64,000 bases of DNA, taken from NCBI GenBank assembly GCA_964455555.1, contig CAYVXV010000001.1, forward strand, positions 31,499-95,498, given 5' to 3'. Every line of letters starts with the position of its first letter. Position 1 is the stretch's first letter. Below the pieces are notes generated by a model. The model did not search any database, was not told the origin of the DNA, and saw only the letters and a list, made by a program, of their open reading frames with translations. Of this stretch, positions 9,912 through 63,983 are shown in pieces. The DNA is from an uncultured Pseudomonadales bacterium. GTDB lineage: Bacteria > Patescibacteriota > Microgenomatia > UBA1400 > PJMF01. Position numbers and translations under genes: made by a program.

Positions 9912-10232
9912 TTAGGCGGCTGCGCTATTCTGAGAAGCCGGCTGGTAATTTTTAAGAAATTCTTCAGCGAATGACTCTTGGTATTCTTCTATGGCAGCAG
10001 CGGGAGTTTTGCCGGTATTCAGCTCATAAAATGAGTCAATCAGTGCATTAGCCACCTCTTCATTGTCGGCTGCGCTAAGGGCTGATTGCTGCTCTTCACT
10101 GAAGGTTGCTAAACCCTGAGTATAAAGCATCATTGATGCTGCCTTAATAATCTCAGTGAGCAAAATTGCAATATCTTCCTCCGGAGTATTGTTTTCCTCA
10201 AGAACCTGAATCATTTGTTGGAATTTACTCAT
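9912..10232 (-). CDS. Hypothetical acidic protein
   Basis: 106 aa, strongly acidic. Lies immediately downstream of the giant ORF in the same orientation. No recognisable motif. Confidence 0.4.
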   Translation of the reverse strand: MSKFQQMIQVLEENNTPEEDIAILLTEIIKAASMMLYTQGLATFSEEQQSALSAADNEEVANALIDSFYELNTGKTPAAAIEEYQESFAEEFLKNYQPASQNSAAA

Positions 10233-10240
10233 AGATGCTC

Positions 10241-13200
10241 CTATTGCAAGTTATTATTTGCAGCTGCTTCAATAAGTTTTTGTACATCAGCCGGGTCAAT
10301 CTGTCGCAGAACTTCCTGCGAGGTATTCGGGCCTAAGCGCAACAACAGCTCTTGCAGTTCGTTGCTGGCTCCATTGTTCATGGCAGCTTCCATAGCCTGG
10401 TCTATATTGCGGATAACCGCATCACTGAGGAAGGTTCCTTCCTGCCCTACCTGAGCCCCAGTTTCAAAAAGGCCAAAGTGCTGATGGATGTTTTTAAGCG
10501 CATTAACCGTCGGATTGTCTGCACTTAGGTTCATGCTTCTTAATTGATTGGCATAGTAGCTCCAAGGATAATCACCGGCTTCAACAATCACGTTTGTGGT
10601 GGCTTCGGCTGCGGCCTGCGCTGTTCCCTCAGCGGCATTGCTGGCGGCATCGGTTGCAGCCCCCGAACCCTCAAGACCGCGCAAGGTTTCCCGGACATCA
10701 TCGACAGTCGCTTCTGCACCGGAGGCTGCTTCGGCTGCGCCTTCTGCAGCAGCCTCATCTATGCCGGATTGGAAACCCATGCCTTCTAAGTCCTCCAGTG
10801 AGGTTGCTTCCCCTGGAACCGGAGTTCTAAGAGATGGAGTTAATTCATCAGCCGCTCCAGCATCAGCCGTTTGGTCGATCCCCTGCTCCAGCGGCAGGGC
10901 GGTGCCTGCCTCATCGCCGGAAGCAGTCTCAAACGCCGGTGTGCCGGCTGCCTCAGACCCCTGTCCTTGAGCTAAGTTTCTAATCTGGTCGCCGGCTAAT
11001 AAGTCTAATAAATTAGCCAACAAGACTACTCTGGCAGCATCAGAAAGGCCTTCTCCGGCTAACCGGGCTTGCTCACCAAATTTTGAGTCAGCAATCTTGG
11101 CAGCGTGCTCAGATGCTCTCTTGAGGATTTTAACGGCATTCTGGCCTCTGTCCCGATTTGCTTCCCAATAATCAAGCAGTTCATCAAAAGACCGCGCTTC
11201 GCCCTTGGTAGCGATTTTCGCTCCCTGCTCAATGGCAAATGAGGATGTAGCAAAACCGATCCTGGCAGCAGCCACCAATGGGCCGCCCAGACTCAGCAGA
11301 ACGACTCCCGGAAAGTAGGCAGCCCGCTTCATGGCGCCCTCTTGAACAAAGATGGTCCTTTTAAGACGCTCCCGGACTCCTTCAAAATCAAATTCGCCTT
11401 TTACCTCACCGTATATCTGCCGTTCTCCATACCGGTTGACCGGAACTTTATATGGATTGGCAGATTGCAGGACGGCAAACAGAGTCGCGTTAAACCATTT
11501 GCCTTTTTTGTCACCTTCCCATAAGCCAACGCGGAATTTGCGATTTTTGTATTTGACAATATCTGCCATCAGCTTGTTTGGCAGTTCATTAGCTTTCCAA
11601 TAATCCTGCAGCCTCCGGTTGTAGCCAATTCTGTCTGTGAGCAGCAAGGCCACAACCTGTTCGTGCCCGATTTCGTCTGCACCGCTGACAAAATTGCGCC
11701 TCCATTCATCCAGGATGCTGTGCACTTCAGTTTCACCGGCATGGTACTTTTCAATTGCTTCCTTTACCTCTTGGCTTTCAATGCCTTCCATAAAGTCGGC
11801 TAGGCTTTGTTCCAGTGACCGCTTGGCATTGCCTTGGATCCTTTCAACAAAAGCCTCAGACTTTTCCCCCGGTTTGCGCATAGCTTCTCCAAGGCGCTGG
11901 CGGAGACTGGGGCCGGTTTCCGTCAAATCAAAGTACTCTGCTGTCATCTCACGGAAAGTGATTTCCTGGCCATCAATTTCATATTTAAATTGATCCTGCC
12001 CGTCAGTCTTGGCAGCAATTTCATCCAAAATTCTTTGCCTGCTTTCACCACTCGGCCTATCTTTGGCAAACAACAAATAGGCAGCCAGATCCTGGGGGCT
12101 GAATTGGTCTAAGTTCTGGCTTTCGTCCTCAAGGGCAGCTGTAATTCTTGCTGATAGCTCAGCATCATGAATGGCGGAAACTCCCTTGCTCTCCAGGAAA
12201 GTCTTCAACTGCTCAGTCCGAACCCTTTTAGCCTCAGCCTCAGCAGCGGACTGCTCTCTTCTTTCTTTGATTTCGCGTGATTTAGCCCTCGCTGCATCTA
12301 AGGGGTGCGGCCTATTCTGCCATTTTTCACTCATCCGCTCTCTAAACCCAGGTCCGGGCTCAGCAATTCCCTCCGGCTCTCCGGCCAGGTCAAAATATTC
12401 CTTTAAAATCTCACTAAGTGGGGTGCTGACCCCATCCTCCAACTCATATGCGGGCATTGGGCTGAGGTCGTTTTCTATATAAGCCATCACAGTACCGACC
12501 TGCTCTTCTGAAAGCCCGGTCTCTGTTGCATAAAGAAGCACGCTGACCAGTTCGTGGACTTCCACTTCAGCGATATTGCCGGCGCTAATTTTCTCTCTGG
12601 CGGCTTCAATAATCTCTTGGTCATAAATGCGGCTATAGCCATGATCGCCGAGGAAATCCTTGAGCTGCTGCTGCCGCTCCTGGCGTTCTCTGAGGGCTGA
12701 GCGCCTCTCCTTGATTCTATTTAACTGACTGCGAGCTGAGTCAATCGGCCTGGGGCGGTTGCTCCAAGCCTCAGTGGCACCCTTCCTGGCCCTGGCTAAA
12801 ACTCCAGGTTGAAATTGCCGGCCGATTTCAACCAACTCATCCACATTCCATCCCTGATTTTCTAAAATAGGTGCATATTCCCTAAAGTCAGCAGGCGACA
12901 TTTTTCCGTACATATACATTGCCACCACCTGATAAACTTGCGGGCCAAGGGCATCCATAGGCTGATTGTCAAAATTGCTTTTCCACCCATTTAACTGAGC
13001 CTCATTGATGTCTGCCAAATTTTGACCATTTGACTGCTCATTGAACTTTGCGGCAACTCCCCACATCTTTACAATATCCGGGTTAGCCTCACTCATCTCT
13101 TCACTAAGCCTTCTGGCGTCACGCTCAGATTTTGCAGTTTTCAACCTGCCCCAAATTTCGTGGGCGGTCTGAAAACGGGCATTCTCTTCCTTGTTTTTCA

Positions 13201-13897
13201 ACCGAAGGTAATCCTGAACTGCCTCAAGTGAATTTTCTCCTTGTTCTCCGAAGCGCTTGTCTTGCTGGAGGTATGTCTGTACCTCGGAAAAACGAGCATG
13301 CTGTTCATCGATTTTGCCGGCTAGATAGAGCTGAATAAGTTTGGCGGCAGTTTCGGGGTTTATTGAACCATCCTCTGCCACTTCAAGATCCATAGTATCG
13401 AGCTCTGATGCATACACCCCCAGAGTGTCTGCCGGAGCCGTAGCATAAACCTTTAATGCCTCTTTTAAGCTTTCCAGCTTTTCCTGCTCTTCTTGGGTAA
13501 GTGGTGCATGATTATCAATTGCTTCTCTAGCTCTGCTGCGAACTCTTTCTGCCACACCGGGGCGGGCCTCACCATCCTCAGTTGCATCTGCCTCATCCTC
13601 ACGTGAGGGGACAATCCTTGAGCGGAGCTCGGCGGCTTTTGCTTTAGCCTTGGAGCCTTGTTCTTTAATAAAACTGGTGAACCTGCCCAGGTTTTGGCCA
13701 ATTCTACCTTCCCTGCTAAAAAACTGGCGGGTTGAACTGAGAAAATTCTTGAGCCTGGATGGCCTTTCAGGGGCCTCTTCTTCTGGGTCGCGCGGGGCAA
13801 ATTCAGGCAGCGGCTGCGGTGTATCAGGTACTGCTGGTGTTTCCGTTCCAAAGTTTTGCACTTCTTCTTCTCTTGGACCTTGAAATTCTCCAGACAT
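10241..13897 (-). CDS. Giant low-complexity, coiled-coil-rich protein of about 1218 aa, function unknown
   Basis: Continuous ORF 10241..13969. The likely start is the Met at 13897, which has an AAAGGAG SD upstream (MSGEFQGP...). Glu/Ala/Arg-rich with an internal ~95-aa duplication (WSNRPRPIDSARSQLNRIKERR... vs WQNRPHPLDAARAKSREIKERR...). One hydrophobic segment (AAYFPGVVLLSLGGPLVAAARIGFA) and an Ala/Gly/Glu-rich C-terminus. Confidence 0.65.
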   Translation of the reverse strand: MSGEFQGPREEEVQNFGTETPAVPDTPQPLPEFAPRDPEEEAPERPSRLKNFLSSTRQFFSREGRIGQNLGRFTSFIKEQGSKAKAKAAELRSRIVPSREDEADATEDGEARPGVAERVRSRAREAIDNHAPLTQEEQEKLESLKEALKVYATAPADTLGVYASELDTMDLEVAEDGSINPETAAKLIQLYLAGKIDEQHARFSEVQTYLQQDKRFGEQGENSLEAVQDYLRLKNKEENARFQTAHEIWGRLKTAKSERDARRLSEEMSEANPDIVKMWGVAAKFNEQSNGQNLADINEAQLNGWKSNFDNQPMDALGPQVYQVVAMYMYGKMSPADFREYAPILENQGWNVDELVEIGRQFQPGVLARARKGATEAWSNRPRPIDSARSQLNRIKERRSALRERQERQQQLKDFLGDHGYSRIYDQEIIEAAREKISAGNIAEVEVHELVSVLLYATETGLSEEQVGTVMAYIENDLSPMPAYELEDGVSTPLSEILKEYFDLAGEPEGIAEPGPGFRERMSEKWQNRPHPLDAARAKSREIKERREQSAAEAEAKRVRTEQLKTFLESKGVSAIHDAELSARITAALEDESQNLDQFSPQDLAAYLLFAKDRPSGESRQRILDEIAAKTDGQDQFKYEIDGQEITFREMTAEYFDLTETGPSLRQRLGEAMRKPGEKSEAFVERIQGNAKRSLEQSLADFMEGIESQEVKEAIEKYHAGETEVHSILDEWRRNFVSGADEIGHEQVVALLLTDRIGYNRRLQDYWKANELPNKLMADIVKYKNRKFRVGLWEGDKKGKWFNATLFAVLQSANPYKVPVNRYGERQIYGEVKGEFDFEGVRERLKRTIFVQEGAMKRAAYFPGVVLLSLGGPLVAAARIGFATSSFAIEQGAKIATKGEARSFDELLDYWEANRDRGQNAVKILKRASEHAAKIADSKFGEQARLAGEGLSDAARVVLLANLLDLLAGDQIRNLAQGQGSEAAGTPAFETASGDEAGTALPLEQGIDQTADAGAADELTPSLRTPVPGEATSLEDLEGMGFQSGIDEAAAEGAAEAASGAEATVDDVRETLRGLEGSGAATDAASNAAEGTAQAAAEATTNVIVEAGDYPWSYYANQLRSMNLSADNPTVNALKNIHQHFGLFETGAQVGQEGTFLSDAVIRNIDQAMEAAMNNGASNELQELLLRLGPNTSQEVLRQIDPADVQKLIEAAANNNLQ

Positions 13898-14037
13898 ATT
13901 CTCCTTTGCAGGTGCTTTGTTGCTTAGACAATAATACAAAAACCTAACGCATGGCGCGCCTTGTTCCATTATGTCAATTTTAGAAGGGATTTACAAGTAG
14001 TTGCTACCAAGAAACCTCTATATTATTCCAACTCAAA

Positions 14038-15558: not shown

Positions 15559-16167
15559 CTAATTGGCGCCGCTTGGCCCGCGGATAGTTTTCCGGTCGCG
15601 CTCAATCTTCTGGGCAGCCTTCTGTTTGCCTGAACCAGCGGGTCCAACCGGACCTTTTTGCGGTCCTGATGGAATCACATATTCCTCAGACCGCTGGGCC
15701 TCAAGCTGCTTTCTCTGCTCAGTCTCTTCTTCGGCTGCCTGCCTTTTTTTTAGCTCTGCCTCGTACATTTGCTGAGCCACTGCCCGCTCGTCCGCCGTCA
15801 GCTTCTCGTAGCGGCTGTGAGCCTGCTTTCTCTTTGACATCTCCTCCGGGTCTTTGGCTTCCTGATTTAGGCCAAGCCAGTTAGTAATGTTTAAAAGGTT
15901 TTTGGTTTCGTCTAAAATATCTTTGGGTATAAGTTTAAGCTCATCCGAAACCGTGCCGATCGGGCGGGGCTCCTTTGGCGTGCTGGTTTGACCAACAGAC
16001 TGGCTGGCTGGCACCGGACCGGAAGAACCGGCCTGCTGCTGCGAAAGAGCCTTTTGCTGCAGAGCCTGCTCCATTGCCCTCTCTTCCATATGCTCGCCAA
16101 AGTCGCTGTTTGCTCGGTTAAAACCACCTCCTTGCCGGGGAACCGCTGATTGCTTGGGGCTTGGCAT
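15559..16167 (-). CDS. Hypothetical Gln/Glu-rich, probably disordered protein
   Basis: 202 aa low-complexity ORF on the same strand as its neighbours. No family recognised. Confidence 0.4.
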   Translation of the reverse strand: MPSPKQSAVPRQGGGFNRANSDFGEHMEERAMEQALQQKALSQQQAGSSGPVPASQSVGQTSTPKEPRPIGTVSDELKLIPKDILDETKNLLNITNWLGLNQEAKDPEEMSKRKQAHSRYEKLTADERAVAQQMYEAELKKRQAAEEETEQRKQLEAQRSEEYVIPSGPQKGPVGPAGSGKQKAAQKIERDRKTIRGPSGAN

Positions 16168-16178
16168 AATTGTCTTTA

Positions 16179-16613
16179 TTAAACCTTGGTGTGTTTTAAC
16201 TGCTCAATCTGATATCCGTCCTGCTGCTGTTTCTGCTGCTCTTCTTCAGACGCTTCTTCCTGCTGCTGTTCACTGCGGGCTTGATACTCCGGAGATGATT
16301 GAATCGAGGCGATTTCCTGGCGCTGCTTCTCAAGCTCTTCAAGATCGGCGGCTTCGTTCTGTTGAGACAACTGCTGATACTCAGCTTGTTCCTGGGCTTT
16401 TCGGGCAGCCTCTGCCTCTGTATGTGCTTGATCTACCAAAACAGCTTCAGCTGCTGCTTCAACCACCGGTCCCGGAGCCTGGGCATCAACCCCTGCTTCT
16501 GCTTTTCTTTTTTTGGCTGATTCCAACAGTTTTTCCAGTTCAGAAAGAGGGTTGTTTTCAGCGGATGAATCTTGTTGATCTTGAAGATCTTGGTTTTGCG
16601 AAGGGTCACTCAT
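16179..16613 (-). CDS. Hypothetical acidic Gln/Glu-rich protein
   Basis: 144 aa, very acidic and Q/E-rich, directly upstream of the previous ORF. Confidence 0.4.
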   Translation of the reverse strand: MSDPSQNQDLQDQQDSSAENNPLSELEKLLESAKKRKAEAGVDAQAPGPVVEAAAEAVLVDQAHTEAEAARKAQEQAEYQQLSQQNEAADLEELEKQRQEIASIQSSPEYQARSEQQQEEASEEEQQKQQQDGYQIEQLKHTKV

Positions 16614-18525: not shown

Positions 18526-19596
18526 CTAATCAGCTGCTCCTGCAAATATTAATACTTCCCGGCCAGGATTAATGCGCTTAACCTGAAACTCTCGCAGGCC
18601 GGCTTCGCTTAAATTACCTATAAGATCACTATAAACTATTTCAGCCACTCTATCATCATCTTCAAAAACTTGCAGCATCAACCAAGCTTGATAGGCCTCA
18701 TACCAATCACCTCCCAATTCTTTGGGCTCGTCTACATCCACAACCTCAGCAGGACTATAAAATCTGCGTGTGCCGAATTGGCCACGCTTGCCCTTGTTTG
18801 GCCCACTGACTACTGCCGGCCCATCAAATTGAGATTTGCAGGCTTCAATTGCTTTATCATAACGCTCAGCGATAGCTTTGTTTTTCATTTCATCGGTCAA
18901 GCTCGGGTCATTAAGAATATCTTCATAGCGATCTTGCAGCAATGACGGGGGGTAGCGCAGGTTGTTGCGGGCTATCTTTTCCATAGAAGACTTGACCGGA
19001 TGCCTTCCCAAAATGCCAAACAGTACATATACATGAGCTACAACAGTTTCAAGAATTGCCATTTTTTCTGCTGGATTCAGTGCTTTCCACTCTTCCTGAT
19101 TCTCCGGGTTCAGCAACCTTGCTTCATAATTAAGTTGATCGCGGAAATGCTTAAAAGTTTTTTCTTCGTGTGCTGTTAAATCCTTTTTCTCATTATTGTG
19201 GCCCAGGTGAGAAACCAACGAAACTCGGCTGGCTTCAGCTAAAGCCGCTGCCTGCTGCTCTACCCCGGCCTCATCAATCGCCAATTCTTCACCAAACTCG
19301 AGAGAAATTGCATTCAAAACATCTTGAAGGAATATTAAAACATCAGCCAATTCCTGATGGCGATACTCTGACCTTCTGGAAACATCAGCAAAATAGCCAT
19401 ACTTATCAGAGCCATTAAGCTCCTCAATCTCACCCCAAAGAAGGTGAAAGGTTTGTTCAGGAATTCGTTCATGGGCAATTGACAAGGTCGGCCGGTCAGC
19501 GCGGAAAGCTTGAGATCCAAGCCTCACTAAAGCCAACGAAGACTGACTTAGAAGCTCACGAGAAAAATAGTAGCAGCCGGATTCCTCATTAGTCAC
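18526..19596 (-). CDS. Hypothetical protein with putative tandem MazG-like NTP pyrophosphohydrolase domains and an unknown C-terminal extension
   Basis: 356 aa. EExxE...ELADVLIFL and a second EKMAILETVVAHVYVLFGILG...KIARN block resemble the MazG all-alpha NTP-PPase EExx(E/D) helices. Sits in the tmk-dut nucleotide cluster. The assignment is tentative. Confidence 0.4.
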   Translation of the reverse strand: MTNEESGCYYFSRELLSQSSLALVRLGSQAFRADRPTLSIAHERIPEQTFHLLWGEIEELNGSDKYGYFADVSRRSEYRHQELADVLIFLQDVLNAISLEFGEELAIDEAGVEQQAAALAEASRVSLVSHLGHNNEKKDLTAHEEKTFKHFRDQLNYEARLLNPENQEEWKALNPAEKMAILETVVAHVYVLFGILGRHPVKSSMEKIARNNLRYPPSLLQDRYEDILNDPSLTDEMKNKAIAERYDKAIEACKSQFDGPAVVSGPNKGKRGQFGTRRFYSPAEVVDVDEPKELGGDWYEAYQAWLMLQVFEDDDRVAEIVYSDLIGNLSEAGLREFQVKRINPGREVLIFAGAAD

Positions 19597-27770: not shown

Positions 27771-29117
27771 ATGTTCAAGCAATCCCTGTCATTAGCGGTT
27801 CTCTGGTATTTAAAAGCATTGGCTAAGATCCAGCTTAAGAAAGTCTCCCCTCAAATTATAGGAATAACTGGTACAGCCGGTAAAACAAGCACCCAAGCAG
27901 CAGCAGCCGCTGTCCTCAAAGATGCTCAAAAAATTAAGATCGGCCACAAAGCCAACTCGGAGAGCGGCATCCCGCTGAATATTTTAGGGCTGGGCATCCA
28001 AACTTATAAACCATTGGAATGGCTGAAACTGCTCATCCAAGCTCCGATTGCTTTAGTTTTTAACTGGGATAAGTACGACACTTATATAGTAGAAATGGCT
28101 ATAGACAGCCCGGAACCGCCAAAAAATATGACTTACCTGCTGAGCATTATTCAGCCTCATATAGGAGTTTTTCTCAATGCTAAGCCGATGCACAGCCTGC
28201 AGTTTGATCATTTAGCCAAAGCCACTAAGCCAGGTGAACGCTCCAAAGAAATAGCCGGGTTAATTGCTGAAGAAAAAGGCAAATTAATAACATCTCTGCC
28301 AAATAACGGTTTTGCCATACTCAATATTGATGATCCGGAGGTAGCTCCCTTTCAGAAAAGAACCAAAGCCAAAGTTATCACTTTTGGCGTGAGTGAAAAA
28401 GCTGATATTCAAATCAAATCAGTCAAACCAAGCTTAAAAGGAACTGAGTTTAAATTTGCCTACGATGGAAACAATTTGACGCTGAGGTTATCCAATTATG
28501 TGCTGCCAAACTATTTTGGGCATACTTTTGCTGCTGCACTAGCGGTGGCTGTCAGCCAAAATATTCCGCCGGAGGCTGCAATCCGCTCAATCAGCAAAAA
28601 TTTAGCACTGCCTCCAGGCAGGTCCTCACTCATTGCCGCCAAAAACGGCTCTTTTATAATTGACAGCTCCTACAATTCGTCCGCAGACCCCACAATTGGT
28701 GCGCTGGAGCTGCTAAACAGCATCGCTCCCAAAAAGAAATATGCGCTATTGGGTGATATCCGTGAATTGGGTTCAGCGGCGGCTTATGAACACCAAAGGG
28801 TGGCTAAGAAAGCAGCTGAGGTTTGTGACGCAGTGGCTTTGGTTGGCCCGCAGATGAAAGAGTATGTGCTGCCGATTTTAGAAGCAGCCGGCAAGGAGGC
28901 GCATTGGTTTCCCAATGCTTCGGCTGCTGCAGTATTTTTTCAAGACAAACTTAGTAAAGATGATGTGCTGTTAGTTAAAGGTTCGCAGAACACCCTGCTT
29001 TTGGAAATTGCAGTAGAAAAACTTATGCTTCACCCTGAGGATGCTGAAAAATTGCTCTGCCGCCGCGGGGGCTACTGGAATGATCAGCGGGACTTGCTTC
29101 TGGCAAATAAAAATTAA
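27771..29117 (+). CDS. Mur ligase family protein (MurF-like, short N-terminus)
   Basis: 448 aa. P-loop IIGITGTAGKTST near the N-terminus, plus Mur ligase central and C-terminal domain patterns (DSSYNSSADP...LLGDIRELG). Exact Mur paralog not assignable. Confidence 0.6.
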   Translation: MFKQSLSLAVLWYLKALAKIQLKKVSPQIIGITGTAGKTSTQAAAAAVLKDAQKIKIGHKANSESGIPLNILGLGIQTYKPLEWLKLLIQAPIALVFNWDKYDTYIVEMAIDSPEPPKNMTYLLSIIQPHIGVFLNAKPMHSLQFDHLAKATKPGERSKEIAGLIAEEKGKLITSLPNNGFAILNIDDPEVAPFQKRTKAKVITFGVSEKADIQIKSVKPSLKGTEFKFAYDGNNLTLRLSNYVLPNYFGHTFAAALAVAVSQNIPPEAAIRSISKNLALPPGRSSLIAAKNGSFIIDSSYNSSADPTIGALELLNSIAPKKKYALLGDIRELGSAAAYEHQRVAKKAAEVCDAVALVGPQMKEYVLPILEAAGKEAHWFPNASAAAVFFQDKLSKDDVLLVKGSQNTLLLEIAVEKLMLHPEDAEKLLCRRGGYWNDQRDLLLANKN

Positions 29118-31141
29118 TCTCCTACCCCATCCGCAGGAGCGTCTGCTACTTCACCATTTATCCAGTCAAGAATTTTTTTAACAACCGGCGCCGCGTCCCG
29201 AGATCCTTCTTTATATGGGTTGGCCTCGTCGCTCTCAACCAAGGCAACAAGCACTAGTTCTCTTAAAAAACCATGCTCAGCCACTTGGGCCAACCATTCA
29301 CCTCTCAGCTCTCGAAGGTCTCTAGACAAGGATGAATCTCCCGGAGCCGCCTTAGGCTGTTCGAGTGTGACTTGATCCATAAGCTCGCCTACAGCTTCAT
29401 CTTCAGCTGGGGAGGTGTCTGTATTGCCGGGTTGTCTGCCCAAATTTAGCGAAGCAGCTTCTGCCTTAAGCTTCTCTGTTTGAATGCCGGTAATAGCTAC
29501 AAACCAACCGTGAGTGTTGCGGTAGCCTCGGCTGTCAGCACCACCAAACTCAGAAGTTCCGGTTTTACAAGCTACTGCCCCATTTTGAATTTCTTCCTGG
29601 GCACTTTTATCCGGCCGCCGCTTTTGCTCGTTGTACATAAAGAAAGGAAAACCTGTTCCTCCGGATGTACAAGCATCCAACATGCCTTTGAGGACTAACT
29701 CGACATGCTCACTGTTAAGGCCAATTTCAGAGCAGTGCCGCTGATCATTTTCTGACAAGAGCGGGTCATAATCCACTAATGTGGGGGGACAGAGTGTGCC
29801 TTTTTTCGCCATTGCTTGAATCACTTGAGCCATCTGAACCGGGCTTACCAACAAATTTCCCTGGCCAATTCCCAAGTGATAAGTATTGCCCAGGAACCAT
29901 TTTTCCCCGAGCTCCAGTTCCTTCCAAGCAGGATCAGGCACCAAGCCGCTGATCTCTGAACCCAGTTCGATACCGGTCTGTTTTCCTAAGCCAAAGAGAC
30001 GCGACATTTGAGCAACGCTGGTTGGCCCCGTCCACTCTGCTGCCTTATAAAAAAAAATATCATTACTTCTGGCAATGGCCCGCTGCAGCGAAATCGCACC
30101 CTCAACTCCCCCATATTGCGTGTAATACCAGTTGGCATAGGAGTACTCTCCAACTTTCAGCACTCCCTCATCCACTACTGTTTTGCCGGCATCAATTGCG
30201 CCTGAATCCAATCCTGCCAGAGCTGTGATAAGTTTAAAAACAGAACCAGGTGGATAAGCACCGCTAACTGCCCTGTTAAAAAATAGTTTTTGGGGATGAG
30301 TGAAAAAATCCATCACTTCCTGGCGCCGCTGTCGCTCAGCCTCCTCATCCAGATAAGAAGTACTCAAAATGCTAGCATCAAAAGTTGGAGAACTGACTAG
30401 ACTAAGAACCTCACCAGTGTCAGCATCCATAACCACTACCGCGCCGCGCTGACCATCCATCGCCCGCAATGCAACTTCAGAAATATAGGGATCAATCGTA
30501 GTTTTAATATCGATGCCGGTCTGGCCAGCGCGCTCCGCGACTTGCCGTTGCCGCTGGCCTAAAGCATTGACCTCATAAATTTTTGCCTCAGCCGCACCCC
30601 TAAGGATTTCATCGTAGCGCTTTTCCAAACCAAGTTTGCCGGTTAAATCACCAATCCTTAGGCGGTTGTCCTTCTCCAATTCTTCCAAGCTAGCCTCACC
30701 AATATAGCCGGTGATATGTGCCAGTGATTTTGGGTATCGGTACAAGCGGTCAAGGTCATATTGGATAACCCCGCTTGAAGTAGCCATGCGGTATAGCGCA
30801 GCCTCCTGCGAAATAGGCTCTTTTGAGCTATAGAGTGCCTCTGGATTTAAAAGCTCAAAATATTTTGGTTGGTTATAGACCAAAGGATCTCCATAACGGT
30901 CAAGCAGCACACCCCTTTCTACCGGCTTTCTTTCAGTAAACAAACGATTGGCTTCAGCCAATTGCCGGTAAAAATTCCCTCTCAATACCTGCAAATCTGC
31001 CAGTCTCCACACCAGCAAAGAAAAAAAGAGCAGACCTGACCCTAGAAATAAAGTCAGTTTAAAAATTGTTTGGTTACGATCGGTACTCATGCCTGCCCAA
31101 CTGCAATAAGGTATGTCTTTTGAAAAGCAGCGGCACACCAA
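29114..31141 (-). CDS. mrdA: Peptidoglycan D,D-transpeptidase, class B PBP (PBP2/MrdA-like) with C-terminal extension
   Basis: 675 aa. N-terminal TM, SxxK (PGSVFKLITA), SxN (ARSNDIFF), KTG (CKTGTSEF), and an acidic ~100-aa C-terminal tail. Follows mreBCD. True start may be the Met at 31087 (MSTDRNQTIF). Confidence 0.8.
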   Translation of the reverse strand: MVCRCFSKDIPYCSWAGMSTDRNQTIFKLTLFLGSGLLFFSLLVWRLADLQVLRGNFYRQLAEANRLFTERKPVERGVLLDRYGDPLVYNQPKYFELLNPEALYSSKEPISQEAALYRMATSSGVIQYDLDRLYRYPKSLAHITGYIGEASLEELEKDNRLRIGDLTGKLGLEKRYDEILRGAAEAKIYEVNALGQRQRQVAERAGQTGIDIKTTIDPYISEVALRAMDGQRGAVVVMDADTGEVLSLVSSPTFDASILSTSYLDEEAERQRRQEVMDFFTHPQKLFFNRAVSGAYPPGSVFKLITALAGLDSGAIDAGKTVVDEGVLKVGEYSYANWYYTQYGGVEGAISLQRAIARSNDIFFYKAAEWTGPTSVAQMSRLFGLGKQTGIELGSEISGLVPDPAWKELELGEKWFLGNTYHLGIGQGNLLVSPVQMAQVIQAMAKKGTLCPPTLVDYDPLLSENDQRHCSEIGLNSEHVELVLKGMLDACTSGGTGFPFFMYNEQKRRPDKSAQEEIQNGAVACKTGTSEFGGADSRGYRNTHGWFVAITGIQTEKLKAEAASLNLGRQPGNTDTSPAEDEAVGELMDQVTLEQPKAAPGDSSLSRDLRELRGEWLAQVAEHGFLRELVLVALVESDEANPYKEGSRDAAPVVKKILDWINGEVADAPADGVGD

Positions 31142-34083: not shown

Positions 34084-34160
34084 AAGTGGTTTGCCTAACT
34101 TCTTTAGTTTTCATAAAATTCAACTCGAATAGGCATTCCTATTCGAGTATACTCAACCAT

Positions 34161-36326
34161 ATGGAAGCTAGATTTGGACCACGGCAGATTATCCTGGTGC
34201 TATACCATTTTTTAGTGCTGTCTGCTCCGCTTTTCTTCTATTTTCAAACTGAAGAACTCTTTGAGTTTAATAAAATAATCCTAGTTTATGCTCTGACCAT
34301 TTTGATTAGCGGCGCTTGGCTCTGGCGGATGATTGTGCAGAAACGCCTGATTTTTCAAAGAACTTTCTTGGACATCCCGCTTGCCCTGTTTTTCATTTCA
34401 CAATTGGCAGCCACATTACTCTCAATGCATCCAAGAACCTCTTTCTTGGGCTATTACACCCGGTTCCACGGTGGGCTGCTCTCGATGATTGCATACTATG
34501 TCCTCTACTATGCATTTGTCAGTAACTTTAGAAAAAAAGATATCCGCCCGTTGTTTTTGTCAGTGTTCGGTTCAGCCCTTTTAGTTTCGATCTATGGAAT
34601 TCTTGAGCATTTCGGCCGTTCTTTCAGCTGTTATCTGATAACCGGCGGCCAATCTTTTGGTGTCGATTGCTGGGTGCAAAAGGTTCAGGAAAGAGTTTTT
34701 GCAACCTTTGGCCAGCCCAACTGGCTGGCAGCTTATGCCATCATGCTTATACCCCCAGGCATGGCACTGAGCGCTGACAATAAATCTTCGCTGCTCAAAA
34801 GAAGTTTTTTTGCCCTAACCACTGTTCTGTTGTTTGCCACACTGCTTTTTACCAGGTCGAGGTCGGGCATGCTGGGAATTGCCGGAGGTTTATTGATCTT
34901 TTATGCCGGCTTATTTTTAATTCCCTGGATTAACAAACATAAACAAACTTTCGGAAACAAACTGCTGAAAACCGGCCTGCTTAAGTGGTCAATCGGTTTC
35001 ACGGCCGTATTTTTGCTGCTGGCTTTGGTTTTTGGCACACCCTATTCTCCTAAATTGACAGAGATTGGCAGCAGCAATGGCCAAGAGGAACCAGCCAACC
35101 AAGCCGAGCAGCCTGCGGTAAACCGCCTGGACATTGGCGGTACTGACTCTGGTGAAATCAGAAAAATTGTCTGGGAGGGCGCCCTGGGTGTCTGGAAACG
35201 GTATCCTTTGACCGGCTCCGGGGTTGAGACTTTTGCCTACAGCTACTACTTAGACCGTCCGGCCGAACACAACCTGGTTTCTGAATGGGATTTTCTATAC
35301 AACAAAGCACATAATGAGTTTCTCAATTACCTGGCTACAACCGGTGCGTTCGGCCTCTTTGCCTACACTTTTCTCCTTATCTCATTTGGGGCTGGCTTAC
35401 TAACCGCCCTCAAAAAATTGAGGGGGGATGAGCGGTCGCAATATTTGTTAATCAGCCTTCTGGCAAGTGTTGCAGCCTTGTCGATCTCAAATTTCTTTGG
35501 TTTTTCAACTGTGGTGGTCACTGCTCTAATGTTCCTCTTTTTGGCCATGACAGCCAAAGAAAAACTCCCTGACGACGCCCTTTCGGAAAAAGCCATTCCT
35601 AAAAAACAAGAGCTGCAAAGTTGGCAGTATGGGGCACTGACTGTCATTACATTAGTAGTACTGATGCTGCTTTCCCAAACTTACCGGTATTGGTCTGCTG
35701 ACATAGCATACAGCTACGGCAAAGGTCTGATGGCGGCCGGCAGGCCTCAGGAAGGCATTCTCTATTTCTCTCAAGCGATAGATCTATCGCCCAATGAAGC
35801 ACTTTTTTATGATGAGTTAGCCAGCAACTATGCCTCATTGTCGGTTGCTTTGGCTCAACAGGAAAACACTACTGCTGCGGCTGAACTCGCGGCATCTGCC
35901 ATAGAACTGAGCAACAAAACCCTAGAGCTTAACTCCTCCCACCTAAATTTCTATAAAACCAGGGCAAGAATGTTCATCACCCTCTCGCAGTTAAACGACG
36001 CCTTCTTAAAGGAAGCACGGGACACTCTGCTGGTGGCCTTGAGCAAAGCCCCCACTGACGCAAAACTTTGGTACAACATTGGTGTTGTAGAACTAAGTCA
36101 GGGCTATACCGACAAGGGCATCGAGCACCTTGAAAAAGCTGTTGATCTTAAGCCTGATTATGAATCCGCCCGCATGCAACTGGCAGCTCAATATCAGCTT
36201 AAAGAGAATTTTGAAAAAGCAGAAGAGCAATACCGATATATCCTTGAGGAAATTAATCCTCAGAGTACTGAGGCTATTGAAAATCTTGAAGCAATAAGGG
36301 CTTTGAATGCCGATACAACTCGTTAA
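34161..36326 (+). CDS. O-antigen ligase (Wzy_C/WaaL-like) polytopic membrane protein fused to C-terminal TPR repeats
   Basis: ORF 34086..36326; probable start MEARFGPRQ at 34161. Over 10 TM helices, a periplasmic loop pattern (FGQPNWLAAYAIM...TRSRSGMLG) like O-antigen polymerase/ligase, then TPR-like repeats (AIDLSPNEALFYDELASNY...KLWYNIGVVELSQGYTDKGIEHLEKAVDLKPDY). Confidence 0.6.
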   Translation: MEARFGPRQIILVLYHFLVLSAPLFFYFQTEELFEFNKIILVYALTILISGAWLWRMIVQKRLIFQRTFLDIPLALFFISQLAATLLSMHPRTSFLGYYTRFHGGLLSMIAYYVLYYAFVSNFRKKDIRPLFLSVFGSALLVSIYGILEHFGRSFSCYLITGGQSFGVDCWVQKVQERVFATFGQPNWLAAYAIMLIPPGMALSADNKSSLLKRSFFALTTVLLFATLLFTRSRSGMLGIAGGLLIFYAGLFLIPWINKHKQTFGNKLLKTGLLKWSIGFTAVFLLLALVFGTPYSPKLTEIGSSNGQEEPANQAEQPAVNRLDIGGTDSGEIRKIVWEGALGVWKRYPLTGSGVETFAYSYYLDRPAEHNLVSEWDFLYNKAHNEFLNYLATTGAFGLFAYTFLLISFGAGLLTALKKLRGDERSQYLLISLLASVAALSISNFFGFSTVVVTALMFLFLAMTAKEKLPDDALSEKAIPKKQELQSWQYGALTVITLVVLMLLSQTYRYWSADIAYSYGKGLMAAGRPQEGILYFSQAIDLSPNEALFYDELASNYASLSVALAQQENTTAAAELAASAIELSNKTLELNSSHLNFYKTRARMFITLSQLNDAFLKEARDTLLVALSKAPTDAKLWYNIGVVELSQGYTDKGIEHLEKAVDLKPDYESARMQLAAQYQLKENFEKAEEQYRYILEEINPQSTEAIENLEAIRALNADTTR

Positions 36327-49062: not shown

Positions 49063-50379
49063 ATGTCCAACCTCTTCGACCCCCATTTAACAAAAACTTA
49101 CCAGCAGGACAAGAAATTCCTCGAGCTTTCAAAAATTCCCATCGTCACCGTCTCTTCCAGTTATCAGGAAGACCTCAAGCGGATGCATGGCCTGCCCAAC
49201 AATGAAACTGACCGCGACGTGGTTTTTTCCCGCGCCCACTACTCGATGGCGCTGGGTGTAGCAACCTATGCCTGGAAGGAAAAAGTTGACCCCCAAAAAG
49301 CCTGGGTAGTCGACCCCACCAACTATGTTTCCAAAGATAAATGGTTTTCCATTCAATTAACAGAAATTATCGGTAAAACCATTGCCCGCAACTCTATACT
49401 GAAAACAGCCAAGGATTTTATAGACCGGTTTGCCCGAAAAAAGCTACCGATTTTGGACAGTATCACACCACCGCTGCTTTACCTGACTGAACATATTAAA
49501 AAACCTATCCTCTCTTTTCATATTGCTGCCGGAAATATCCTGGCTGGACAAGGAAAAACAGTTGTTCAGGTGGTGACTGATCCGCATGTCCGCGCTGAAT
49601 ATGTAACATATGCTGACAAAAAAAATATTAGTTTTTGTGTTTTTGATGAAGCCACCAAAGTGGATTTTCTGGAACAGGCGGCTAAACTGGATATCAAAGC
49701 CGATCCAGACCGGGTGATCGTGACCGGCCCGCCAATTGACCCAAGGATTATCGCTGCAAAAAATGAGAAAAACCCCTGGAGAAGCGGCATCCTGCGGCTT
49801 TGCATCACTACCGGAGGCCTAGGAACGAACAAGGAAGAAATTCTGAAGATGCTCAGGCAATTTCTACCTGAATTGCGCAAGCGCTCGCTGGAATACCAGC
49901 TGCTGGTCTACGCCGGCACCCAGCATGATATTGCCGATGAAGTTGAAAAACTGGCTCAGGAAAACAGGATTGCAATTGGCGGTCTTAATGATAAAAAAGC
50001 CAAGCTCAGGCTGATTTACCATCCTCAAATTGTTGATGCCAATGAAATGCTGATTAAGCATGGTTTCCCTTGGGCTCACGGTTTTATAACCAAACCATCA
50101 GGAGATATGGCTTATGACGCAGCCGCATCGGGCAGCTTCATCCTCACCATGGCAGAATGGGGTGAATGGGAGGAACGGATTCGGGTTATTTTTGAGCAGA
50201 AGAATATAGGCCGTACTGCCGACACCAACTCGATTATTTCTCAGCTGGAAGTCCTCCGCTCGGCTCAAAGAAAGTCGCAATCCTGGATTGAGCAAGCCAT
50301 GCACAATGCCCAAAAACTCGAGCCGCTCTATCTGAATGGGGCTAAAGGCATTTTAAATGCCGTTAAACAAGCCGGCTAA
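49063..50379 (+). CDS. Hypothetical protein, possible GT-B fold glycosyltransferase (MurG/MGDG-synthase-like)
   Basis: 438 aa. LRLCITTGGLGTNKEEI resembles the C-terminal-domain G-rich loop of GT28-type transferases (VTGGSxGA). Weak, overall-pattern call. Confidence 0.4.
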   Translation: MSNLFDPHLTKTYQQDKKFLELSKIPIVTVSSSYQEDLKRMHGLPNNETDRDVVFSRAHYSMALGVATYAWKEKVDPQKAWVVDPTNYVSKDKWFSIQLTEIIGKTIARNSILKTAKDFIDRFARKKLPILDSITPPLLYLTEHIKKPILSFHIAAGNILAGQGKTVVQVVTDPHVRAEYVTYADKKNISFCVFDEATKVDFLEQAAKLDIKADPDRVIVTGPPIDPRIIAAKNEKNPWRSGILRLCITTGGLGTNKEEILKMLRQFLPELRKRSLEYQLLVYAGTQHDIADEVEKLAQENRIAIGGLNDKKAKLRLIYHPQIVDANEMLIKHGFPWAHGFITKPSGDMAYDAAASGSFILTMAEWGEWEERIRVIFEQKNIGRTADTNSIISQLEVLRSAQRKSQSWIEQAMHNAQKLEPLYLNGAKGILNAVKQAG

Positions 50380-52599: not shown

Positions 52600-54189
52600 A
52601 TGAAACCTGCTCTAAAGCGTGTAGTTTTTAGCGTCCCCAATTTACTGCCTTTTGCCGGCCTATTACTAGTCATTTCCGGAGTGATTGGTATCTTTTACAC
52701 TCAGGAAGCCCTTCAGGAATCTCAAGAAATCCGGTCAAGCGCTTCCGGCGAAAGCGGCCAGGTTTTAATTGCTCCCCTCACCTCTCCAAGCACGACTATC
52801 AAAGGCTTAGTCCAAGAGCAGGTGATTTCTTTAGGAATTAACACTCAAAATCTGCCGCTTAAAGAATTTTCGGTGGTATTTAATGCCATTACTGATGTTG
52901 CAGACACGCTTGAGTTAGTGCCAAGCAACCTAGTTGGTTTTGAAGTTACCGCAGAAACACAAAAAACAGCCGACGGCTTCCTGGCTACCGCCGTTTTTAC
53001 CAGGACCAGCCAGAATTTCCTATCCAACTACAACCAAAAATTTTTGGAAATTCATTTTGAACCTGCTAAAGCCGGAACAATCGAACTTAATTTTGACCGC
53101 GAGCTTTCCGTAGCGCTTCACGCTGACAACAGCTCTGATATTCTTAAACACATTGCCGATGCTACTTTTACCATCGCCGCCAGTGAAGCTGACCCCACTT
53201 ACAAAGCCTGCAACGAAACCTGCAGCTCCAACGCCGAATGCCAATCTGGTTTCCGCTGCTTTAATACCGGCAGTGAATCGCGCTGCCGCCTGGTAACCAA
53301 CCCATCGAGCTCCACCTGCAGCTCAGAAAGCACTTTAAAATCCTGCAATCAAAGCTGCGGCGGCAGCGCTGAATGCCAAAGTGGCCTGAGCTGCATTAAC
53401 AGCATCTGCAGAAACCCGAATAATCCCGAAAGCTCCAGCTGCAGCAACCCAACTCAACAAGCAGAAACTCAAGCAGCCAGCTGCAATGAAGCCTGCACCA
53501 CCAATGCTGACTGCGCGGTAAATTTCCGCTGCTACTACAATCAATGCCGGCTGGCTACCAATCCTTCAAGTACCAGCTGCAGTGCAGATACGACTTCCAC
53601 TGTGTCTTCGCTCTACCAAAAGGAACCAGTAGAAACCGCTACACCATCTGCCCTGCCAACCTCACCGGCTCCTGAAACCAGCACAGAAAATGAAGAAACC
53701 CCAGAAGAATTTCAGCCAGAGGAGTCAGAACCAGTGACCCAACCCCAGGAACAACCTTTGGATCCGGATGAAACTTCACTTCAAGCCCTGCTGAGCGTCC
53801 TCGGCAGCTCAACTTTCCGCCTGCCCAGCACAGTCTTGGTTGCTGGAGCCATCTTGCTGCTTGTCGGCGGAGCAGTCTTTGTTGCCGCCTCCTCCAGAAA
53901 GAAACCGACCACTGTAGCTATGACAAAAACCGGCGTACCGCCTGCTCCACCTCCCAGAGAAACACCGCCTCCTTATGGGGCACCTCCTCAACCTCCGTCG
54001 CCGCAAACAGCACCTCCGCTAGCACCACCTTCGCAGTCAGCGCCTCCACAAGCAGCACCGCCGCAACCCGTACCTCCGCCTAACCAATCAGTTCCAATGG
54101 CTGAACGGTCATCTTCGATGGTTGAACGGCTCAAACAAAAAGGGATTACGCCGCCAAGCACAGGCAATCAGCAGCCAAAAGACCAATAG
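52600..54189 (+). CDS. Membrane-anchored protein with three tandem Cys-rich modules, Ser/Thr/Pro linker, C-terminal TM helix and Pro-rich tail (contains PPPY)
   Basis: 529 aa. N-terminal signal/anchor (VVFSVPNLLPFAGLLLVISGVIGIF). Three ~40-aa repeats, each C-x3-C-x5-C-x5-C-x4-6-C-x9-11-C (CNETCSSNAECQSGFRCFNTGSESRC... / CNQSCGGSAECQSGLSCINSICRN... / CNEACTTNADCAVNFRCYYNQCRL...). TM LPSTVLVAGAILLLVGGAVFVAASS followed by RKK. Tail PPAPPPRETPPPYGAPPQPPSPQTAPPLAPP... Confidence 0.6.
   Translation: MKPALKRVVFSVPNLLPFAGLLLVISGVIGIFYTQEALQESQEIRSSASGESGQVLIAPLTSPSTTIKGLVQEQVISLGINTQNLPLKEFSVVFNAITDVADTLELVPSNLVGFEVTAETQKTADGFLATAVFTRTSQNFLSNYNQKFLEIHFEPAKAGTIELNFDRELSVALHADNSSDILKHIADATFTIAASEADPTYKACNETCSSNAECQSGFRCFNTGSESRCRLVTNPSSSTCSSESTLKSCNQSCGGSAECQSGLSCINSICRNPNNPESSSCSNPTQQAETQAASCNEACTTNADCAVNFRCYYNQCRLATNPSSTSCSADTTSTVSSLYQKEPVETATPSALPTSPAPETSTENEETPEEFQPEESEPVTQPQEQPLDPDETSLQALLSVLGSSTFRLPSTVLVAGAILLLVGGAVFVAASSRKKPTTVAMTKTGVPPAPPPRETPPPYGAPPQPPSPQTAPPLAPPSQSAPPQAAPPQPVPPPNQSVPMAERSSSMVERLKQKGITPPSTGNQQPKDQ
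53206..53570 (+). repeat. Intragenic tandem repeat: three ~120-nt units encoding Cys-rich modules
   Basis: Recurring tgcagctc / gaatgccaa / agctgc words in DNA. The protein-level 6-Cys spacing is conserved across three consecutive units. Confidence 0.5.
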
Positions 54190-62549: not shown

Positions 62550-63983
62550 TTGATGCCTAATTTACGAGACCTAAGGGAACAGCACCCCCGTTTTTACTAC
62601 CGAGATTACTCCTGGGAACTCGAGCCTGAAGGTTTAAAATTATCCTTTCACTTCGAGCTGGAACCGGGCATTCATTTCCGGCCTACCATGACCATTCTAG
62701 GCGTAAGCCAGGATGTCATGGCCAGGCTTAACCCTAAAGAGATTGATCTGGCTGCATTTAACATTGGTATGGCTGAGCTTTTCAGCTACTGGAAAACTGC
62801 TGCTTCCCCGGAGATTATTATTGAAGCTGCTCCCCTCAGCAGCGAGCAGCTTGCCTGGTGGCACGACCTTTTAATCCAAGGCATGGGTGAGTATTTCTTT
62901 GTTAACCGGATTGACTTTACTGACCCCGGCTTTGTTAAATTTGTCAGCGCTTCAACAAAAGACCCGGCTGGCCAACCGCAAAACAGCCAGAGATCTACCC
63001 CAAGCCAGAATGTCCTTATACCCCTTGGAGGCGGCAAGGACTCAGTCACCACCCTAGAGCTTTATAGGGAAATAGCTGACGAGGGACGCAAACTGGCTTG
63101 TTTTTTTGTTAACCCAACCCAGGCTGCCAGGGATATAGCCAGGGAAAGCGGCGTCCAAGCAATCGAAGCCTCCAGAACACTAGACCTGAAAATGCTTGAG
63201 CTTAATAGTCAGGGCTACCTCAACGGCCACGTACCCATTTCTGCCCTATTTGCTTTTACCAGCGTCTTGGCCGCCAGGTTGTTTGGCTTTGGTTTTATAG
63301 CGATTTCCAATGAGCGCAGCTCCAATGAGGGCAATGTCTGGTTTCACGACAGGGAAATTAATCACCAATATTCCAAAACCTTCGAGTTCGAACAAAAGTT
63401 CCAACAATACATCAGGGATTACTATCCGCCTGATTCGCCTCTGTACTTTTCATACCTGCGCCCAATCTATGAATTGCAAATAGCCGGCATTTTTGCCGAC
63501 TACAAGAGCTATCACCACGACTTTCGCAGCTGTAATGCCGGCCAAAAAACCAACAGCTGGTGCGGCCAATGCCCCAAATGCCTTTTTGCCTACACAATCC
63601 TTTACCCTTTTCTCGAGACAAAACACCTTGATGGCTTATTTGGCAAAAACCTCTTCTCGGATGAAAACCTGCTGCCCCTAGCCTTAGAACTGGCAGGTGC
63701 CGGTGAACAAAAGCCGCTCGAGTGTGTCGGCACTCATGAAGAAACCATTGCCGCCTTTCATTTGTCCTGGAAAAAACATCAGGCTGACCCCTCAACCCAG
63801 CCCGTGCTTCTCAAGTTGGTGTATGAAACGGTTTTGGCCAACGAGGCTGGCCTGGATGCCAGGGCAGCTGCCATTTTATCTGCCTGGAATGACCAACATA
63901 CCATCCCGGAAAAAACCTGGGAAGAAAAGCTGAGGGAAAAAATAGCCGGACTTGACCAGAAAATTATCAATGGTGGCATTTGA
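62550..63983 (+). CDS. PP-loop (adenine nucleotide alpha-hydrolase superfamily) ATPase-like protein with N-terminal unknown domain and C-terminal Cys cluster
   Basis: 477 aa. VLIPLGGGKDSVTT resembles the SGGxDS PP-loop at ~residue 158. C-terminal FRSCNAGQKTNSWCGQCPKC (C-x10-C-x2-C-x2-C) resembles QueC/TtcA-type zinc sites. Confidence 0.45.
   Translation: MMPNLRDLREQHPRFYYRDYSWELEPEGLKLSFHFELEPGIHFRPTMTILGVSQDVMARLNPKEIDLAAFNIGMAELFSYWKTAASPEIIIEAAPLSSEQLAWWHDLLIQGMGEYFFVNRIDFTDPGFVKFVSASTKDPAGQPQNSQRSTPSQNVLIPLGGGKDSVTTLELYREIADEGRKLACFFVNPTQAARDIARESGVQAIEASRTLDLKMLELNSQGYLNGHVPISALFAFTSVLAARLFGFGFIAISNERSSNEGNVWFHDREINHQYSKTFEFEQKFQQYIRDYYPPDSPLYFSYLRPIYELQIAGIFADYKSYHHDFRSCNAGQKTNSWCGQCPKCLFAYTILYPFLETKHLDGLFGKNLFSDENLLPLALELAGAGEQKPLECVGTHEETIAAFHLSWKKHQADPSTQPVLLKLVYETVLANEAGLDARAAAILSAWNDQHTIPEKTWEEKLREKIAGLDQKIINGGI

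Follow-up and report, generated by a model that had tools for sequence, protein, structure and literature searches.

In the 64,000-nucleotide stretch of DNA analyzed here (contig CAYVXV010000001.1, from an uncultured member of the Patescibacteria; hereafter the window), positions 10241-13897 of the minus strand hold a genuine, conserved protein-coding gene whose product belongs to an orphan family, undescribed and unmatched within the reach of the tools that we applied. The large protein is a chain of alpha-helical modules that has been reshaped by lineage-specific tandem duplication, and together with the small acidic open reading frame (ORF) that follows it the gene forms a clade-restricted two-gene unit. 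Our leading interpretation, which we advance tentatively, is that the large protein serves as a structural scaffold without enzymatic activity, held at the membrane, with a cytoplasmic helical platform, an acidic stalk and a head domain, and with the small protein as its binder or chaperone. In a genome of about 1 Mb, the 3.7 kb given over to an orphan protein kept with a small partner imply a maintained, clade-specific function, and such genes are candidates for the poorly understood envelope and host-interaction biology of Patescibacteria.

The gene lies in a single minus-strand ORF at 10241-13969, with 1,242 codons counted from its first ATG; this is the longest ORF of the window, the runners-up encoding 746 and 738 amino acids. 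The original prediction, a short note made from the sequence of the window, had already called it the largest gene present, of about 1220 residues at 10241-13969 and rich in Glu, Ala and Arg. The ORF list, the size and the composition (Ala 12.6%, Glu 11.4%, Leu 8.5%, Gly 7.3% and Arg 7.0%) agree with that description, and the start needs revision, since the true one is likely to be the second ATG, at position 13897. This start is favored because a Shine-Dalgarno sequence, AAGGAG (13901..13906), can be read 4 nt upstream of it and the public gene call begins at the same ATG, giving a coding sequence of 1,218 codons and a stop (10241..13897), while the first ATG, at 13969, has no ribosome-binding site and is overlapped by a -10-like element. 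The in-frame extension of 24 codons between the two (13898..13969) is thus probably untranslated. The -10-like element belongs to a promoter-like sequence found by consensus scan between cysS and the large gene (13968..13996; TTGTAA, 17 nt, CATAAT, with a TG extension), which is a consensus match only, in a region where the count of such sites does not exceed shuffle expectation. Residue numbers below follow the 1,218-residue protein; numbering from the full ORF of 1,242 residues is 24 higher. The ORF is retained in two further lineages at 1,144-1,368 amino acids, and its third-position GC content (0.48) equals that of its neighbors (0.47-0.49); by this test of foreign origin there is therefore no sign of recent acquisition.

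A single-sequence phmmer scan of 1.84 billion representative proteins, beyond which more distant relatives are possible, returned only two relatives and hence three clusters in all: P0006, a protein of 1,368 amino acids with 37% identity (E 2e-180), and P0007, of 1,144 amino acids with 27% identity (E 9e-25). Word-index homolog searches with the whole protein, the three-sequence alignment and an alignment of one of its modules (module C, below) returned the query or nothing, and were probably swamped by common words. No relatives of the large protein were found by pattern scans of GTDB genomes, JGI metagenomes and IMG/VR, or by tblastn against phage records (INPHARED). Pfam and NCBIfam gave no family for it at E values up to 1, catalytic families included; PHROGs matched none of the three homologs nor the small partner, PADLOC matched neither the large protein and its homologs nor the partner, and sequence and profile searches of the PDB gave no match for the large protein. 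Foldseek comparison of the structure models with the PDB yielded nothing convincing (best E 0.36-0.69), and a literature search by topic found nothing relevant. These empty searches of Pfam, NCBIfam, PDB, PHROGs and PADLOC bear out the earlier statement that the protein carries no recognizable catalytic motif; a match to SMC, to an S-layer protein or to another known family, which the original prediction had named as the finding that would remove its novelty, was looked for and none appeared.

The range of the family is correspondingly narrow. CysS, encoded immediately upstream, places the organism among Patescibacteria labeled Pacebacteria or Microgenomates, and when 80 related patescibacterial loci were fetched by means of CysS (55-71% identity), neither the large gene nor the small ORF had a homolog in any of them. 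The orphan family thus appears, on these counts, to be limited to a small clade of Patescibacteria near the organisms so labeled, as the original prediction of a lineage-specific protein had it. Compared with the genome of P0006, identity is 60-83% for the housekeeping neighbors, 39% for the large protein and 42% for the partner; the large protein therefore diverges about twice as fast as its housekeeping neighbors. Fast divergence is common among structural or surface proteins, and large lineage-specific hypothetical proteins are common in Patescibacteria. The large gene is one of very many uncharacterized orphan families in these genomes and as such of modest immediate value; nothing here points to an unprecedented mechanism, and the family is an ordinary-looking orphan.

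A three-way alignment and composition analysis of the three homologs gave a common plan. The protein opens with an acidic, Pro-rich region (residues 1-42, 13772..13897), part of which falls in a low-entropy window at residues 17-48. Read from the sequence, this N-terminus lacks a hydrophobic core and no signal peptide is present there. It is followed by a cationic amphipathic motif, RLxxFxxxxRxFFxxEG (residues 45-78, 13664..13765), with a hydrophobic moment of 0.64 against a mean of 0.26 for the protein and a net charge of +3; in this region E44, L49, F52, R57 and G64 are invariant across the three homologs. Helical module A (residues 132-365, 12803..13504) was delimited from the alignment and the conservation profile, with AlphaFold predicted local distance difference test (pLDDT) scores mostly of about 57-87, and one of the best-conserved blocks of the whole protein, LNGWKxNF...YQVVAxxMYGKISP...QGWDVD, forms its C-terminal part. 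A SHOCT-like reading of YGKISPxEFxxY within this block had no support from Pfam and was set aside. Helical module C (residues 676-860, 11318..11872), defined by invariant alignment columns and modeled with pLDDT of 62-87 at residues 687-791, holds the best-conserved motifs: VxALLxTDRIG, a YK dipeptide, and P-K-V-G, with VPV in two of the three homologs. The end of module A and the start of module C share a motif of about 45 residues, LxxWxxNF...QVVALLM (hhalign 91%, E 1e-6, a value somewhat inflated since the windows were picked by the motif).

Between modules A and C lie two tandem repeat units, B1 (residues 378-525, 12323..12766), which begins WSNRPRP, and B2 (residues 526-673, 11879..12322), which begins WQNRPHP; both were delimited by Smith-Waterman comparison, hhalign and alignment of the units. 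The two segments quoted in the original prediction as an internal duplication of about 95 residues score 141 by Smith-Waterman against a shuffle mean of 36 (sd 5.7), a z of 18, and the family profile aligned to itself with hhalign gives a probability of 96% (E 4.5e-9) for the B duplication. When the units are cut at W378 and W526 they align end to end over 156 columns with 34.6% identity, and in the AlphaFold model both run through one succession of elements, from a long helix (33-39 residues) by way of three short helices and a small beta-hairpin to a final helix. The self-alignment proposed with the prediction therefore confirms the repeat and delimits its units at W378 and W526; the duplication stands, and its length becomes two tandem units of 148 residues. 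The three-way alignment shows that B2 is missing from P0006 and P0007, each of which has one B module, so that B2 is a lineage-specific extra copy; the single module of P0006 is nearer to B1 (score 167) than to B2 (score 74). In P0006 it is module A that is tandemly duplicated (score 537, z=75). Different modules have therefore been duplicated in sister lineages, and the family provides a clear small example of protein length evolving in this way. Further modules that looked B-like by eye in the N-terminal 215 residues of P0007 scored z<2 by Smith-Waterman against shuffles and were rejected.

The original prediction had described the protein as low-complexity and coiled-coil, and neither term is supported. 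Windows with an entropy below 3.0 bits occur only at residues 17-48, 96-128, 533-565, 941-970 and 1033-1110, so that low complexity is limited to short stretches and to an acidic Ala/Gly spacer of about 125 residues. A crude heptad scan of the large protein found no window, which leaves short coiled segments possible, and in two AlphaFold models, one for each half of the protein, the longest helices have 31-40 residues. In these models, the N-terminal of which has a mean pLDDT of 70.5, the large protein appears as a string of short-helix bundles rather than a coiled coil. These results also bear on whether the protein might be a member of a known coiled-coil or surface-layer family, whether SMC-like, S-layer or a cytadherence protein of the Mycoplasma HMW kind, an idea to which we give almost no credence and for which only its size, acidic composition and small-genome context speak. 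No SMC_N (Walker head) or hinge match was found in Pfam or NCBIfam at E<=1, the PDB gave no sequence match, and the coiled arms of hundreds of residues that mark SMC proteins are missing, since helices in the models do not exceed about 40 residues and the heptad scan gave no window. As to surface proteins of S-layer or Gram-positive type, there is no signal peptide, and Pfam gave no SLH or wall-anchoring domain; nor was EAGR or any other Pfam or NCBIfam family matched at E up to 1. HMW1, HMW2 and P65 of Mycoplasma are large, acidic, lineage-restricted structural proteins of a reduced genome with an acidic, Pro-rich end, and in these respects the large protein may resemble them; unlike them, it has no Pfam match to their domains and no extended coiled coil, and the organism that encodes it is an unrelated patescibacterium.

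Following the helical modules is a hydrophobic segment, FPGVVLLSLGGPLVAAARIGFATSSFAI (residues 862-889, or 886-913 in the numbering of the full ORF; 11231..11314), the one hydrophobic stretch that the original prediction had pointed out and a marginal candidate for a membrane anchor. Its Kyte-Doolittle mean over 19 residues is 1.80 here and 1.53 and 1.85 in the homologs, values that straddle the classical threshold of 1.6, and all three homologs retain its position, an LLS motif and a central Arg/Lys. Insertion of the segment into the membrane is plausible. The region after it (residues 890-975, 10973..11230), recognized from alignment and composition, carries a conserved, predicted amphipathic helix, EAARxVLxAxxxDxL; it has a Kyte-Doolittle mean of 1.37 and is neutral to basic in each homolog, with G950, A954, A955, R956, A961 and D965 invariant. 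The composition then changes sharply in an acidic spacer rich in Ala, Gly, Pro, Ser and Thr (residues 976-1100, 10598..10972; 59% of these five residues, pI 4.05, Lys+Arg 2.4%, pLDDT <35). Across the homologs Lys+Arg falls from 12-14% upstream to 2.4-8.9% in the spacer, and the length of the spacer stays at 120-135 residues in all three despite its unconserved sequence. Short tandem duplications are visible within it, of GEPGPLRD(V/I)TPEG(L/F)QP(D/E)(A/V)VDV in P0006 (residues ~1157-1203, two copies) and of RSYIAQGEAA in P0007 (residues ~922-951, two copies); the spacer thus seems to evolve by local duplication while its length holds.

The original prediction had placed an Ala/Gly/Glu-rich tail here; such a region exists, in the form of this internal spacer, and the true C-terminus is a conserved domain of 118 residues (1101-1218, 10244..10597). 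This domain is acidic, is predicted to be all-helical (pLDDT mostly of about 66-81, with two dips) and, at 47% identity to P0006, is among the best-conserved regions of the protein. It had no Pfam match at E up to 10 in any of the three homologs and no PDB profile match. A LysM assignment was considered for its motif IVEAGDYPWSYYANQL...VGQ (IVEAGDxxW) and rejected, as none of the three domains matched LysM at E<=10 and the model is all-helical and not beta-alpha-alpha-beta. In each of the three homologs the hydrophobic segment is followed by a neutral or basic region, then by the acidic spacer of 120-135 residues and the acidic head domain.

We propose that the N-terminal helical part, of about 860 residues, would act as a cytoplasmic interaction platform whose length is varied by duplication of modules, and that the hydrophobic segment, perhaps with the cationic amphipathic motif, would hold this large protein at the membrane. 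The acidic spacer would then serve as a flexible stalk on which the conserved C-terminal head domain is offered to a partner, and the small acidic protein would be a dedicated binding partner or chaperone of the large one. If the hydrophobic segment truly spans the membrane, the partner of the head would lie in the cell wall or at the cell surface. There would be peptidoglycan for the stalk to cross, because the window encodes a PBP transpeptidase (29114-31141, minus strand). It also encodes, at 34086-36326 on the plus strand, a Wzy_C (O-antigen ligase-like) protein with C-terminal TPR repeats; given these two genes, the organism has peptidoglycan and probably a surface polysaccharide. A bolder version, in which the pair is the core of an undescribed, clade-specific envelope-spanning structure with a cytoplasmic platform, a wall-crossing stalk and a surface head serving host attachment or communication, strikes us as improbable.

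Several points weigh against a membrane-held scaffold. The structural assignment owes much to the lack of any other match, and with the family known from three lineages only, inference from conservation is thin; near-identical variants, which are separated by no more than one substitution or by the called start alone, give no estimate of the ratio of nonsynonymous to synonymous substitution rates (dN/dS). The AlphaFold model of the C-terminal half is poor (mean pLDDT 45.8) and confident only at residues 687-791 and 1111-1218. As for the hydrophobic segment, its summed biological hydrophobicity is positive in all three homologs (+4.3, +6.8 and +2.4 kcal/mol), it contains Pro, Gly and the conserved central Arg/Lys, and the charges that flank it favor neither orientation clearly.

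The features of the segment, which make it non-inserting on the biological hydrophobicity scale and place a conserved basic residue, Pro and Gly within it, would also suit a fully cytoplasmic, cytoskeleton-like scaffold, in which the segment would be a buried core or an oligomerization helix, and the spacer and head would remain inside the cell. The lack of a signal peptide, the acidity of both the large protein and its partner, which is typical of cytoplasmic proteins, and the all-helical modules of variable copy number fit such an arrangement as well. However, in a soluble helical protein a 19-residue Kyte-Doolittle mean of 1.8 is unusual, and the segment keeps its position in all three homologs; the sharp fall in Lys+Arg in the spacer, soon after the segment, suggests another compartment, and a disordered acidic spacer of conserved length that leads to a head domain resembles wall-spanning stalks. 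We regard a wholly cytoplasmic scaffold as somewhat less probable than one held at the membrane. Among known systems, membrane-anchored scaffolds of the type of EzrA from Firmicutes are likewise large, non-enzymatic and built of all-helical repeated modules with one hydrophobic segment, and like them the large protein may plausibly act as an interaction platform on the membrane. It differs from them in having no sequence or fold match to EzrA or similar families, and in that its segment is marginally hydrophobic and lies about 70% along the chain, not at the N-terminus, with the spacer and head domain after it.

The small acidic partner ORF (9912..10232, minus strand) encodes 106 amino acids with a pI of 4.05 and lies 8 bp downstream of the large gene. 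It is followed on the same strand by PspC and purA, the successive gaps being 8, 29 and 4 bp, in keeping with the co-orientation of these genes reported in the original prediction. In all three lineages the large gene comes directly after cysS, and a homologous acidic ORF of 106-113 residues with 37-42% identity follows it after 8-13 bp; among the 85 loci examined, the small ORF was found only beside the large gene. On this distribution the two genes form a clade-restricted unit. Adjacency to PspC and purA is incidental, because cysS is followed by PspC or purA in genomes without the pair, and in the P0007/P0009 lineage, on contigs of >1 Mb, the pair is followed by a RecD-like helicase at a locus without PspC and purA. 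Linkage with the Psp membrane-stress response was likewise not found, PspC following cysS without the large gene and being missing at the P0007/P0009 locus. In four loci without the pair (L028, L041, L048 and L068) PspC follows cysS within a few hundred bases, and in two others (L007 and L008) cysS is followed by a small unrelated ORF and then by purA. Because close relatives without the pair have PspC or purA soon after cysS in this way, the pair would seem to be either an insertion or a retention specific to the clade. Large ORFs that follow cysS in other relatives were considered as homologs and proved unrelated (a DUF5060/collagen-binding protein, ABC transporters, a type II/IV secretion ATPase and adenylosuccinate lyase).

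Close relatives lack the pair at this locus, and a small acidic ORF lies 8-13 bp downstream of the large gene; both facts raise the question of a mobile-element remnant beside cysS, either a protein like a phage tape measure or a large toxin accompanied by its small acidic immunity protein. Like tape-measure proteins, the large protein is a long helical molecule with much Ala, Glu and Gly, its length varies through tandem duplication, and its hydrophobic segment falls within the C-terminal third. Unlike them, it has no PHROGs match (for three homologs and the partner), no relatives in IMG/VR or the phage records and no phage genes nearby; it occupies a stable locus between housekeeping genes, with cysS, PspC, purA and the RecD-like helicase as neighbors and no tail gene module, and the order is conserved in three lineages. 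The likeness to polymorphic toxin-immunity pairs (LXG, Rhs, CdiA) is in a large protein and a small acidic ORF that are separated by a few bases and found only together. Here, however, there is no trafficking or toxin domain, and the C-terminal domain is acidic and, at 47% identity, among the best-conserved regions, whereas polymorphic toxins have variable tips; a small downstream ORF alone is not defining. PADLOC has no anti-phage defense model that matches the proteins, and the third-position GC of the gene equals that of its neighbors. A mobile origin of either kind is accordingly very unlikely.

An exported surface protein or effector for host attachment, with the small ORF as its secretion chaperone, would account for the fast evolution, the restriction to one clade and the variable module copy number, and the small acidic helical partner directly downstream recalls many effector-chaperone pairs. 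Many Patescibacteria are epibionts, which we counted in favor of this idea; for the present organism, however, the episymbiotic lifestyle is an assumption. The protein lacks a signal peptide and any known secretion or trafficking domain, none of the genes seen next to the large gene belongs to a secretion system, and its models are almost wholly helical, with none of the beta-rich domains of adhesins. We consider export for host attachment improbable and continue to prefer, with the reserve stated above, a scaffold held at the membrane.

Other uncharacterized genes were seen near this locus and in its relatives. In the closest genomes without the large gene (L006-L008), a different small ORF follows cysS on the plus strand (11457-11888 in L006; 11449-11841 in L007 and L008), and spans 131-144 codons when measured between stops; its Gln/Glu/Pro-rich middle is flanked by conserved ends, LQQILDxFGxxLQNYIREEV ... 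MSDYDxMFGxLARxKN, and it shows no Pfam match and no resemblance to either protein of the pair. In the P0009 lineage a gene for 1,150 amino acids, with a weak ABC_tran match only, lies between the genes for the YchF GTPase and ribosomal protein S6 (19329-22781 in L086 and 12257-15709 in L088, both on the minus strand); the P0006 genome lists no gene in that gap. The window itself is rich in uncharacterized proteins: ORFs of 356-529 amino acids without a Pfam match at E<=1e-5 lie at 52600-54189 (plus strand), 18526-19596 (minus), 62550-63983 (plus) and 49063-50379 (plus). Two Gln/Glu-rich minus-strand ORFs, again without a Pfam match, encode 144 (16179-16613) and 202 (15559-16167) amino acids and sit between a ribosome hibernation factor gene and cysS. 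Most of the 80 related loci keep both in about this position (hmmsearch E to 1e-27 and 1e-75, respectively), and they form a widespread uncharacterized gene pair, in which the 202-residue protein has a strongly conserved N-terminus, MPxPK...R.GGGFN, and an equally marked C-terminus, PS.P.KG.VGP.GS.KQK..QK...DR.

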